From a virus (lineage: Duplodnaviria; Caudoviricetes), in the IMG/VR virus record IMGVR_UViG_3300031569_000004, positions 1-60,900 of that record: a DNA stretch of 60,900 bases; one strand, written 5' to 3'. The stretch's first letter is position 1. The number at the start of each line of letters is the position of its first letter. The position numbers were made by a program, and so were the translations under genes. Below are positions 44,406 through 44,604 of this stretch, piece by piece. Below the pieces are notes generated by a model. That model had not been told where the DNA came from, searched no databases, and was given only the letters and a program-made list of their open reading frames with translations.

Positions 44406-44489
44406 TGATTTTACGTATGACTTCTGCTCTAAAATATGTTTAAATACTAGTGCAGTACAATTTTTAAACTTAATTAAGGAGTACAAGTT

Positions 44490-44561
44490 ATGTGGACAAA
44501 ACCAGAATACACAGAAATGCGTTTTGGGTTTGAAGTAACAATGTATGTATTAAACAAGTAA
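44490..44561 (+). CDS. pqqA: Pyrroloquinoline quinone precursor peptide PqqA ([23 protein letters not shown])
   Basis: 23 aa; W-x-K-P...R-x-G-F-E-V-T-M-Y with the Glu-X3-Tyr pair; AAGGAG RBS 44476-44481; TAAATA 44441-44446; terminator after. Confidence 0.95.
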   Translation: [23 protein letters not shown]

Positions 44562-44574
44562 CAATGCAGTAATT

Positions 44575-44604
44575 AGGAAGGAGGCTTTTGTCTCCTTTCT
44601 TTTT
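44575..44604 (+). terminator. Terminator after pqqA
   Basis: AGGAAGGAGGC-TTTT-GTCTCCTTTCT stem with G-U pairs plus T-tract. Confidence 0.7.

Follow-up and report, generated by a model that had tools for sequence, protein, structure and literature searches.

The 60,900-nt viral stretch analysed here (the window, which is the whole of its record) encodes a 23-aa precursor peptide of the cofactor PQQ, and its gene, pqqA, is the distal member of an apparently overlooked cassette that runs from a CTAAATA box through a glutamine riboswitch (RF01739) and a small basic ORF to pqqA and a terminator. The reading that we favour, and hold to be probable though far from secure, is that of a phage auxiliary metabolic gene (AMG): a functional PqqA would be supplied as a consumable precursor to the PqqBCDE enzymes of the host, and in many phages the glutamine riboswitch would gate that supply.

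PqqA is a small peptide consumed one-for-one in PQQ synthesis; the Glu and Tyr of its Glu-x-x-x-Tyr motif become PQQ through the action of PqqD/PqqE, a protease, PqqB and PqqC. The window ORF (44490-44561, + strand) is a true member of this family, scoring 43.9 bits against Pfam PF08042 (cut-off 21.1) and 48.8 bits against the equivalog TIGR02107 (cut-off 20), which bears out the original prediction of a genuine pqqA; a six-frame genome search likewise recovers PqqA in the window, at 41.7 bits. The motif is intact (E15-V-T-M-Y19), the length falls within the range of PqqA (about 20-40 aa), and the core of the peptide is also present in cellular copies that precede pqqBCDE. A chance ORF is ruled out by the HMM scores together with the conservation described below. 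Direct reading of the sequence places an AAGGAG ribosome-binding site (RBS) at 44476-44481 (+ strand), 8 nt 5' of the ATG, and an intrinsic terminator closes the cassette at 44575-44605 (+ strand; hairpin 44575-44600, then a T-run), its fold reaching -18.6 kcal/mol (z = -3.8; 0/200 shuffles as stable).

The gene is not a lone unit, as the CTAAATA box, the riboswitch and a 34-aa ORF lie with it in the terminator-bounded interval 44214-44574. At its 5' boundary lies the terminator hairpin of the upstream unit (44179-44213, + strand, followed by a T-run; -17.6 kcal/mol, z = -5.6, 0/200 shuffles as stable), and its 3' boundary is marked by a sigma-70-like promoter outside the cassette (44639-44667, + strand; TTGACA, 17 nt, CATAAT; 11/12 consensus matches) that belongs to the SSB/UvsX/UvsY unit. 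The CTAAATA box (44219-44225, + strand) is a candidate late-type promoter: the window has 9 copies of this heptamer versus 18 expected, and 4 of the 9 fall within intergenic sequence (2.4% of the window), each 3' of a terminator. Immediately 5' of the aptamer, GACTAAATAT is found in the window, in two other viral loci (L088 and L128) and in the viral record G002. The original prediction had given pqqA its own late box, RBS and terminator; the latter two stand, and the box is only plausible. This possible internal promoter, TTTAAATACTA (44439-44449, + strand), contains TTTAAATA, which matches 7/8 of TATAAATA, the box found about 10 nt ahead of transcript starts in T4-type late promoters, and L088 has a similar GTTTAAATA box upstream of pqqA. 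The shorter form TAAATACTA occurs 5 times in the window versus 1.85 expected (4/100 shuffles reach 5), with all 3 + strand copies at most 50 nt upstream of a start codon; exact TATAAATA occurs 4 times versus 8.6 expected, always on the coding strand and upstream of starts. CTAAATA at 44219 is the better match to the intergenic pattern.

The riboswitch aptamer (44229-44278, + strand) is a full-length match to Rfam RF01739, the glnA RNA motif (model positions 1-53 of 53; 53 bits versus a gathering threshold of 35), and is the sole Rfam match in the whole window. Downstream of it lies orf34 (MELWNQYCWKIAVRDHRRKQILKRLWLRSINIYI; 44301-44405, + strand), a small basic, putatively riboswitch-controlled ORF of 34 aa with homologues behind the same riboswitch in other viral loci; a profile search found 10 representatives at E <= 0.001 among 1.84 billion, and the ORF has no match in Pfam (E <= 10), PHROGs or the ESM Atlas. 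Its AGGAGG RBS (44290-44295, + strand) is able to pair with the aptamer 3' strand CACCU (44275-44279), and the MFE fold does pair the two. Over 7 homologous leaders, 88.6% of cells pair in this RBS helix versus 40-63% once the partner is shifted along, one pair is changed on both sides in 2/7 sequences, and 11/500 shuffles reach the observed pairing, lending modest support to a putative RBS-sequestering helix. Glutamine binding is reported to raise translation in this riboswitch class (PMC6212724), and the viral element would presumably be an ON switch too. In cyanobacteria, the class is described as mainly regulating small inhibitory proteins (PMC6212724). Riboswitch control of the window's own pqqA copy is the weakest link of our reading, because this copy has a separate RBS and possibly its own promoter box. 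Neither the riboswitch nor the small ORF ahead of pqqA had been noticed in the original prediction.

Surveying viruses with a bait independent of pqqA, we recovered at least 117 loci, 53 of which carry pqqA directly after the small ORF; the two genes overlap or are fused in 51 of these and are separate in 2. Seen from the small ORF, pqqA is immediately downstream in 53/61 complete loci of the family, and in locus L412 the two are fused in frame to give a 50-aa product. RF01739 is present in 18/18 tested cassette loci at 53-62 bits, and homologous cassettes overall score 50-62 bits. Conversely, 115/120 sampled viral pqqA records are without the riboswitch anywhere in the record; all collection scans used motif baits, so that counts are minimum values and the proportions are those of arbitrary samples. 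A riboswitch regex matches 0/120 cellular pqqA loci, and the top cellular family matches are likewise without the riboswitch. In the main texts of the literature we found no description of a riboswitch-pqqA cassette.

Like other phage AMGs by position, the window pqqA is a host-like gene between bona fide phage genes, with large terminase and a virion structural protein upstream and SSB, UvsX and UvsY downstream (PHROGs); the window has no tRNAs. As originally predicted, the pathway genes are absent from the window, profile and tblastn searches giving no pqqB, pqqC, PqqD, pqqE or PQQ_2 match; a PQQ dehydrogenase is likewise absent from it, and pqqA does not stand right before pqqB-C-D-E as it does in the canonical operon. 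Since the record covers about 17% of a jumbo-size genome (CheckV completeness), this absence is valid for the window only; the description of pqqA as standing alone without its pathway is correct for the window and unproven for the whole phage, and within the window the gene shares its cassette with the riboswitch and orf34. For relatives the orphan layout is established. PqqA exceeds its cut-off in 14/14 whole viral records, of which six are complete GenBank genomes and two are IMG/VR contigs with an estimated completeness of 98-100%, and the cut-offs for PqqE, PqqC, PqqB and PqqD are reached in 0/14 of these, positive controls being detected. By tblastn, pqqB-E matches were found in 0/120 sampled IMG/VR pqqA loci (1.01 Mb) and 0/117 riboswitch-baited loci (0.93 Mb), with controls positive. 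In record G002 (72 kb, about 20% complete, jumbo-size) a full-length PQQ dehydrogenase of the methanol/ethanol family (624 aa; 608 bits summed on TIGR03075) lies about 6 kb away from pqqA, and record G005 has a generic radical-SAM match at 27.7 bits, far under the 381-bit cut-off.

Within its own lineage pqqA is dispensable, being present in only 3/75 of the closest SSB relatives with enough upstream sequence; the two closest relatives, with TerL about 90% identical, are without it, and 128 to 2,530 nt separate the structural gene from SSB in 64 relatives. Across methylophages the gene is widespread. INPHARED has pqqA in 10 phage records (MEP401/402, Venkman, MEP301, P19250A, Melnitz x4 and one uncultured phage), so that every record matching the peptide is from a Methylophilales/Methylophilaceae phage or from that uncultured phage. 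All five reported Methylophilales phage isolate lineages carry an orphan pqqA, mostly unannotated: this 72-nt gene is overlooked by gene callers, yet all cultured methylophage lineages checked have it. Cultured hosts for such phages include OM43 H5P1 (Venkman, Melnitz), FZCC0133 (MEP401/402) and LD28 IMCC19250 (P19250A). The gene is also carried by at least 120 IMG/VR contigs, with intact ORFs of 23-25 aa in 120/120. By comparison with this figure for the methylotroph core, the Acinetobacter-type core LRIGFEVTMY has 0 IMG/VR matches. Two matches labelled 'Acinetobacter phage MD-2021a' were rejected as phage evidence, for their pqqABCDE beside ppk is a bacterial-type locus. Among 103 distinct viral nucleotide versions of pqqA, the summed entropy in unforced codons amounts to 10.5 bits at the third position versus 4.3 at the first and 4.1 at the second, and M1, W2 and P5 are invariant, a codon pattern indicative of purifying selection on viral pqqA. 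The two commonest viral PqqA peptides (26 and 21 viral loci) are also the two commonest cellular ones (43 and 21 copies).

Judged by its core, the window's form of PqqA is all but confined to methylotroph genomes: among 120 cellular loci sharing this core, 92 bear methylotroph names and 25 only high-rank labels, a Rhodocyclaceae MAG contributes 1, and the other 2 are from a single MAG with the label Acidovorax caeni. The phage is a marine jumbo-size phage, and its host is most likely a methylotroph. The proposed resemblance to Methylophilaceae PqqA holds as that of a methylotroph form; a host in that family is only possible, since the nearest cellular peptide (21/23 residues, among the loci examined) belongs to a Burkholderiales MAG, and MAGs of both Burkholderiales and Rhodocyclaceae show the KPEYTEM N-terminus. 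The nearest cellular DNA among fetched loci matches at 63/72 nt, 299/301 matching genomes of the family of record G009 show 89% DNA identity over 74 nt, and a near-identical cellular donor was not found among the loci and genomes compared. No cellular peptide seen is identical to the window peptide, whose suitability as a substrate is thus an assumption. Contigs from four RNA-library runs leave bins 44336-44469 without cover; contigs with word depths of 3,489, 3,244 and 81 follow the window over about 44470-44545 before diverging, and continue as ...YVCNR-stop. As this continuation is unlike the window, they are excluded as this pqqA copy and stem from another pqqA gene, and as assembled contigs they cannot reveal transcription, strand or level. 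In the cellular data, 71/130 pqqA copies are orphans although at least 1 kb of sequence is available downstream of them. Methylophilaceae are reported to have 3-12 pqqA copies and one pqqBCDEFG set (PMC4109929), orphan copies can rank among the most highly expressed (PMC9851590), and xoxF is described as always the top transcript in abundance in OM43 (PMC5120137).

In the proposed AMG role, catalysis would be left to the stable enzymes of the host (PqqB, C, D, E, F and G), and the phage would contribute only PqqA, the short-lived consumable. With this supply, PQQ synthesis could continue in infection and would keep at work the periplasmic methanol dehydrogenase (XoxF/Mxa) from which the cell draws its power. 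In many phages the small ORF runs over the start of pqqA, so its glutamine-dependent translation should gate PqqA there; in the window phage, the 84-nt spacer and separate RBS would make for looser coupling. As PQQ is a stable cofactor, precursor supply may or may not be limiting within one infection cycle. In favour of the supply role, PQQ is reported to be lost or secreted by producers (PMC12124388). A bolder version, which we entertain as possible and somewhat doubtful, is that a mobile phage-specific cassette subjects precursor supply directly to a metabolite: the glutamine riboswitch would switch on the small leader ORF, the overlap of its stop with the next start would pass translation on to pqqA, and marine phages would in this way match PQQ-dependent methanol oxidation in the host to nitrogen status. 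If true, the cassette would be the first AMG of its kind to be gated by a riboswitch, common to unrelated backbones (jumbo-size and roughly 36-kb podovirus-like), and orphan pqqA would be a hallmark gene for methylotroph phages in metagenomes.

Two competing explanations would change the company that PqqA keeps. The unsampled 83% or so of the genome could encode partners, such as a PQQ-dependent methanol dehydrogenase or a PqqE-like radical-SAM protein, so that pqqA would belong to an enzyme-plus-cofactor module. The 17% completeness of the record leaves room for this, G002 combines pqqA with its 624-aa dehydrogenase, G005 has its 27.7-bit radical-SAM match, and Baikal T4-like contigs are reported with methanol dehydrogenase, PqqA and radical-SAM genes (PMC7678222). 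However, six complete isolate genomes and two 98-100% complete IMG/VR contigs have no such gene, a dehydrogenase is found in the flanks of 0/120 and 0/117 sampled loci, and the window and G002 have just 2 weak protein matches in common; we consider this module unlikely. Slightly more unlikely still is that the small basic ORF and a PqqA-like peptide act jointly, by analogy as something that regulates or inhibits a host enzyme of nitrogen or C1 metabolism, or as a different modified peptide. The tight linkage in 53/61 complete small-ORF-family loci, the 50-aa fusion of L412, the lack of any known family for the small ORF (Pfam, PHROGs, ESM Atlas) and the analogy with small glutamine-synthetase-inactivating factors behind cyanobacterial glutamine riboswitches (PMC6212724) would all suit such a role. 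The PqqA part, however, exceeds curated cut-offs with the full family signature and a core identical to cellular PqqA, OM43 and Melnitz are described as having no glutamine synthetase (PMC9004378), and most viral pqqA records (115/120 sampled) are without the riboswitch, which argues that PqqA works without the small ORF.

The remaining alternatives concern what the peptide itself would do. PQQ released from infected cells might shut a TonB-dependent PQQ transporter that serves phages as their receptor, curbing superinfection or wasteful adsorption; PQQ-bound PqqU is reported to be closed and to block a PqqU-dependent coliphage, and producers secrete PQQ (PMC12124388), but the analogy comes from E. 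coli only, the use of such a receptor by any methylophage would be conjecture, and we judge the idea improbable. We give even less credence to the decoy that the original prediction had offered as its other option, in which the peptide would bind host PqqD or PqqE unproductively and stop PQQ synthesis. The window peptide is indeed at least 2/23 positions away from all cellular peptides seen, yet the differing positions (6-8 and 21) also vary in cellular copies preceding pqqBCDE, the Glu-x3-Tyr motif and flanking core are invariant, and stopping the host's main energy enzyme brings no obvious gain; above all, a decoy is unlikely because the commonest viral and cellular PqqA peptides are identical. 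That pqqA is a neutral passenger, or a stretch of homology through which recombination or integration at host pqqA copies could take place, with a peptide of no role, is just as hard to credit as the decoy. The appeal of this reading lies in the hypervariable slot (128 to 2,530 nt in 64 relatives) from which pqqA is mostly absent and in the many dispersed pqqA copies of hosts, but a conserved peptide with free third codon positions is the opposite of a DNA-level att or homology core, the flanks are without similarity to cellular loci, and pqqA is found in backbones of both T4-like and jumbo type, at least 5 isolate lineages having gained or retained it.

Much of the methanol in seas and lakes is turned over by OM43 and related methylotrophs, and in coastal water XoxF ranks with the most abundant transcripts and proteins. 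Should phages sustain PQQ synthesis, often under glutamine gating, infection would directly shape C1 oxidation and couple it to nitrogen status. An orphan pqqA of the window's sequence type could also be a cheap host-prediction marker for methylotroph phages, and the cassette would offer a compact natural example of riboswitch and leader-ORF coupling.

Viral pqqA itself is already known, as the original prediction suspected it might be; its cassette with the riboswitch is new here. As in the window, a PqqA gene on an uncultured phage contig was reported for the Lake Baikal population VP_266 (Coutinho et al. 2020, Microbiome 8:163; PMC7678222); that contig is T4-like and low-GC, has a predicted Methylophilaceae host, and its pqqA was read as an AMG that enhances methanol oxidation. 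Unlike the window, VP_266 is from freshwater and has pqqA alongside a viral methanol dehydrogenase; the main text of that account mentions no riboswitch, small ORF or cassette (PMC7678222). The isolate P19250A is described there as encoding none of these AMGs (PMC7678222), a statement contradicted by its intact PqqA ORF, which scores 38.1 bits. Orphan pqqA genes of methylotrophs (Beck et al. 2014, PMC4109929; PMC9851590) share the same core and often the identical peptide as unlinked 23-24 aa genes, but are chromosomal, supplement a single pqqBCDEFG set and match the riboswitch regex in 0/120 cases. Canonical pqqABCDE operons (Acinetobacter-type L008, Methylophilus MAG L131) encode a PqqA peptide with Glu-x3-Tyr as in the window, with pqqA 69-190 nt upstream of pqqB, whereas the window has no pqqB-E. 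Type 1 glnA RNA before gifB/IF17 in cyanobacteria (Klahn et al. 2018, PMC6212724) belongs to the same Rfam family and is likewise the leader of a small ORF. Melnitz-like OM43/SAR11 myophages (Buchholz et al. 2022, PMC9004378) show the same riboswitch family in marine phages of streamlined heterotrophs, their OM43 hosts being reported without it; the text discusses the element as a control of a tmRNA and lysis timing and makes no link to pqqA, 'pqq' appearing there solely as an ingredient, at 1 nM, of the OM43 medium. In Melnitz the riboswitch lies about 30 kb from pqqA, unlike the arrangement in the window cassette. Cyanophage psbA (D1) follows a similar logic as a 'consumable part' AMG, the phage carrying only the fast-turnover component of a host system for energy harvesting and the host supplying the rest; psbA, however, encodes a structural subunit, a different protein in a different pathway, whereas PqqA is a stoichiometric biosynthetic substrate.

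The PqqA ORF of the original prediction is real: the 23-residue peptide encoded at 44490..44561 (+) of the window scores 43.9 bits against Pfam PqqA (cut-off 21.1) and 48.8 bits against the NCBIfam equivalog TIGR02107 (cut-off 20) in the profile search proposed as a check. Its RBS and terminator are also as described, with AAGGAG 8 nt before the ATG and, 3′ of the stop codon, a hairpin (44575–44600; −18.6 kcal/mol, z = −3.8) followed by a T-run. The gene occupies the window's largest intergenic gap (44175–44732), whose layout reveals a riboswitch cassette. A terminator hairpin (44179–44213) at the 5′ end is followed by a CTAAATA box (44219–44225), the aptamer of a full-length glutamine riboswitch (RF01739, 44229–44278; 53 bits against a gathering threshold of 35, and the only Rfam match in the window), the AGGAGG ribosome-binding site (RBS; 44290–44295) of a 34-residue basic ORF (44301..44405), TTTAAATACTA (44439–44449), and then the AAGGAG, pqqA and its terminator; the small ORF and pqqA, with its own RBS, lie 84 nt apart. 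CTAAATA, a motif described as a late promoter in marine T4-like phages, is scarcer in the window than expected (9 versus 18), yet four copies fall in the intergenic 2.4% of the window, each just 3′ of a terminator. For TATAAATA the count is 4 where 8.6 are expected, and every copy precedes a start on the coding strand. Seven homologous leaders lend modest support to a putative expression platform in which the 3′ strand of the aptamer can pair with the RBS.

A covariance model places RF01739 in 5 of the 120 pqqA-bearing IMG/VR records listed and in phage Melnitz, where some 30 kb separate it from pqqA; neither the remaining isolates nor the closest relatives lacking pqqA have a match. One locus (L088) has the gene order of the window; in two others (L120, L123) the stop of the small ORF overlaps the start of pqqA. 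Baiting independently of pqqA, with the aptamer 3′ strand and RBS region only, recovered at least 117 viral loci, and in 53 of the 117 listed PqqA directly follows the riboswitch-controlled ORF. The distance from small-ORF ATG to pqqA start is 81 nt in 1, 83 in 4, 85 in 40, 86 in 6 and 189 in 2 of these; in 51 pairs the genes overlap or are fused, L412 (6449 onward) being joined in frame into a single 50-residue product, and the two separate pairs (L362, L402) encode a small ORF identical to that of the window. The remaining 64 listed loci comprise 47 with an unrelated ORF family of 64–65 residues, 8 with a small-ORF-like frame and no pqqA within 1.5 kb, 4 cut by contig ends, 3 with a 51-residue ORF and 2 with a 33-residue ORF. 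That conserved 64–65-residue family (L342–L455, for example L353 and L400, plus L128, 7185 onward) begins MNRFDHLHK... or MERHTRLL..., carries a GTSGY motif and uses the same riboswitch and RBS platform. All 18 cassette loci tested score 53–62 bits for RF01739, and neither pqqB–E nor a dehydrogenase occurs in any of the 117 baited loci listed. The overlapping cassettes lie between major head protein and tail-fibre genes on a podovirus-like backbone of about 40% GC, with genomes of about 36 kb implied by CheckV completeness of 16–20% for contigs of 5.6–7.3 kb; the cassette is therefore present in at least two unrelated architectures. The small-ORF family is tiny (10 representatives at E ≤ 0.001 among 1.84 billion), and two of the ten have tails readable as out-of-frame pqqA.

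As originally claimed, pqqB, pqqC, PqqD and pqqE have no match in the 60.9-kb window, and neither has PQQ_2, a span of about 17% of the phage genome. A tblastn search of 50,697 phage records with the peptide gave 12 hits, of which two, the 'Acinetobacter phage MD-2021a' records, were rejected as phage because they carry pqqABCDE beside ppk, a bacterial-type locus, which we reused as a control. In one locus with this chromosomal-type arrangement (L008, CAKLQF020000010.1 104210–112263), the 144-kb contig may be bacterial, filed as phage. That leaves ten, from Methylophilales phages MEP401, MEP402, Venkman, MEP301 and Melnitz (4 records), Methylophilaceae phage P19250A and one uncultured phage, all with a clean ORF of 23–24 residues, an ATG and an RBS-like purine run. 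The locus is unannotated in most; Melnitz and MW202481 have an opposite-strand 'hypothetical protein' annotated at pqqA (L006 2495–2569; L007 2119–2190), and these annotations (MelnitzEXVC044M_152 and UOF77531.1) are probably miscalls over the true gene. We searched 14 viral records end to end with HMMs: six GenBank genomes flagged as complete and eight contigs from IMG/VR, two of them 98–100% complete. PqqA was above cut-off in all 14, and PqqE, PqqC, PqqB and PqqD in none; the sole sub-threshold match was a generic radical-SAM (27.7 bits against a 381-bit cut-off), and control genomes were positive for pqqC (5/5), pqqB and PqqD. An orphan pqqA is demonstrable as a general phenomenon in viruses. 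'Without its pathway' accordingly stands for the window and for 14/14 whole viral records, but not for this phage overall, about 83% of whose genome is missing.

A degenerate DNA pattern for the 11-residue PqqA core matches at least 120 IMG/VR contigs, with an intact PqqA-type ORF of 23–25 residues in 120/120 matches listed; tblastn of 1.01 Mb of flanks found pqqB–E in none of these 120 loci, with the control locus positive on all four queries. The Acinetobacter-type core LRIGFEVTMY, a specificity control, had no IMG/VR match. Among the listed matches, 114 genes have exactly 23 codons, in 103 distinct nucleotide versions. Summed over the 13 codons unforced by the pattern, third positions have an entropy of 10.5 bits, first positions 4.3 and second positions 4.1, and M1, W2 and P5 are invariant: viral pqqA encodes a translated peptide under purifying selection. 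RNA-library runs X15, X16 and X17 hold contigs matching window 44470–44545 at 95% or more, with word depths of 3,489, 3,244 and 81, contig word depth being a poor expression measure; these diverge after the pqqA coding part, reading ...YVCNR-stop, which indicates another pqqA, apparently very abundant in those marine samples.

The window is an entire IMG/VR record, linear and of 37.3% GC, whose CheckV completeness of 17% implies a genome of roughly 350 kb; its distant DNA matches are jumbo phages (for example, PA5oct-like Pseudomonas phages and Atu_ph07). The phage is marine, since 41410–47608 is present at 0.83–0.96 of sampled words in 14 DNA runs that 12 studies supplied under marine, seawater or brine metagenome labels; the source sample may be among them. 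Upstream of pqqA are the large terminase (39797..41413) and an 842-residue virion protein; downstream, behind a sigma-70-like promoter, are a gp32-like SSB, UvsX and UvsY. Related SSBs occur on at least 591 IMG/VR contigs; among the best 80, only 3 of the 75 with at least 400 nt upstream carry pqqA, each 264–698 nt upstream of the SSB on the same strand, and the two closest relatives (SSB 82–83% identical, TerL about 90%) have none. Where both genes are present (64 loci), the gap from structural gene to SSB varies between 128 and 2,530 nt. It is a hypervariable accessory slot, and pqqA is an accessory gene within the window's own lineage. Nearby, a 61-residue ORF with AKKAT/AKK repeats (43974..44159 (+)), where crude longest-ORF calling would choose the opposite strand, matches histone-H1-like HC2 weakly, at 23.3 bits where the cut-off is 40. 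A cytidylyltransferase-like ORF (47644..48426 (+)) matches the PHROG heptose 7-phosphate kinase/adenylyltransferase (E = 1.6e-29); Baikal methylophage genes include a glycerol-3-phosphate cytidylyltransferase (Coutinho et al., PMC7678222).

The methylotroph host read from a Methylophilaceae-like PqqA form was assessed against cellular genomes, one per GTDB species, in which a pattern for the 10-residue core found at least 120 loci. By record title, 92 of the 120 listed are methylotrophs (Methylotenera, Methylophilus, Methylobacillus, Methylovorus, Ca. Methylopumilus, Methylophilaceae, Methylophaga/Methylophagaceae, Methylomonas, Methylococcus), 25 carry order, class or phylum labels only, 1 is a Rhodocyclaceae MAG and 2 are in one 'Acidovorax caeni' MAG. 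The last holds two orphan methylotroph-type copies on two contigs (L222, L248), possibly through mis-binning or mislabelling. The listed loci contain 130 pqqA copies: pqqB lies within 600 nt downstream in 35, 71 are orphan (no pqqB, although 1 kb or more of sequence follows) and 24 lie too near a locus end for judging linkage; none of the 120 matches the riboswitch regex. Among the matches listed, the two most frequent viral peptides (26 and 21 loci) have the same sequences as the two most frequent cellular ones (43 and 21 copies). The window's peptide has a C-terminus resembling Methylophilaceae and OM43-phage forms and is 21/23 identical to OM43 phages MEP401/402; at the DNA level the best cellular identity is 89%, seen in 299 of the 301 genomes matched within the family of a Methylophilus MAG. 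The peptide agrees equally well (21/23) with an orphan copy from a Burkholderiales MAG, whose genome contains 13 PQQ alcohol-dehydrogenase family matches (2 above cut-off). Burkholderiales and Rhodocyclaceae MAGs of 2.8–4.2 Mb also carry the peptide's KPEYTEM N-terminus, and the pqqA flanks share no similarity between window and cellular loci. The host is thus likely a methylotroph. We regard marine Methylophilaceae (OM43-type) as an even call, a best guess rather than a finding.

PQQ is built from the Glu and Tyr of PqqA, one peptide being consumed per cofactor. The precursor is modified by PqqB–F, and producers lose PQQ to the medium (PMC12124388); Methylophilaceae have pqqA in 3–12 copies and the remaining pqq genes as one set (PMC4109929), suggesting that precursor supply is the variable they tune, and the top OM43 transcript is always xoxF (PMC5120137). 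Together with the one-for-one use, these make a phage-supplied consumable the simplest reading: the phage would bring only PqqA, leaving processing to host enzymes. Glutamine binding raises translation in this riboswitch class (PMC6212724), and where the two genes overlap or are fused (51 cassettes) PqqA output should track the small ORF, hence glutamine. With 84 nt of separation and its own RBS, the window's pqqA may be under looser control.

That phage pqqA might already be reported was a sound caution: Coutinho et al. (2020, PMC7678222) describe a viral contig from Baikal that encodes PqqA as well as a viral methanol dehydrogenase, interpreted by the same auxiliary metabolic gene logic, and a 2026 paper (PMC13188868) includes pqqA, pqqE and pqqD among virus-encoded phosphorus-cycling genes. 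The former states that P19250A encodes none of these methylotrophy genes, which is contradicted for pqqA by an intact, unannotated ORF (L005 2501–2569; KX815270.1 28085–28153, minus strand) scoring 38.1 bits against the 21.1-bit cut-off. The MEP401 paper gives only Venkman, MEP301 and Melnitz as earlier OM43 isolates; in their main texts, the papers on Venkman, MEP301 and MEP401/402 never use 'pqq', and the Melnitz paper has PQQ only as a medium ingredient. Among the main texts searched, none describes the cassette or presents pqqA as a trait common to isolates. By leader alignment, the Melnitz riboswitch (L338 1501–1549; MZ577097.1 46398–46446) is followed by a cassette-type RBS and ATG platform; the published reading is tmRNA control, and a small ORF may be its direct target. 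Similar to the Baikal phages that pair methanol dehydrogenase with PqqA is a 72-kb viral contig, about 20% complete (G002, L332–L335), which encodes a 624-residue methanol/ethanol-family PQQ dehydrogenase with a signal-peptide-like N-terminus (about 33989–35863) and, at about 39696–41958, a glutamine riboswitch before a 63-residue acidic ORF, a thioredoxin-like ORF and pqqA with its terminator.
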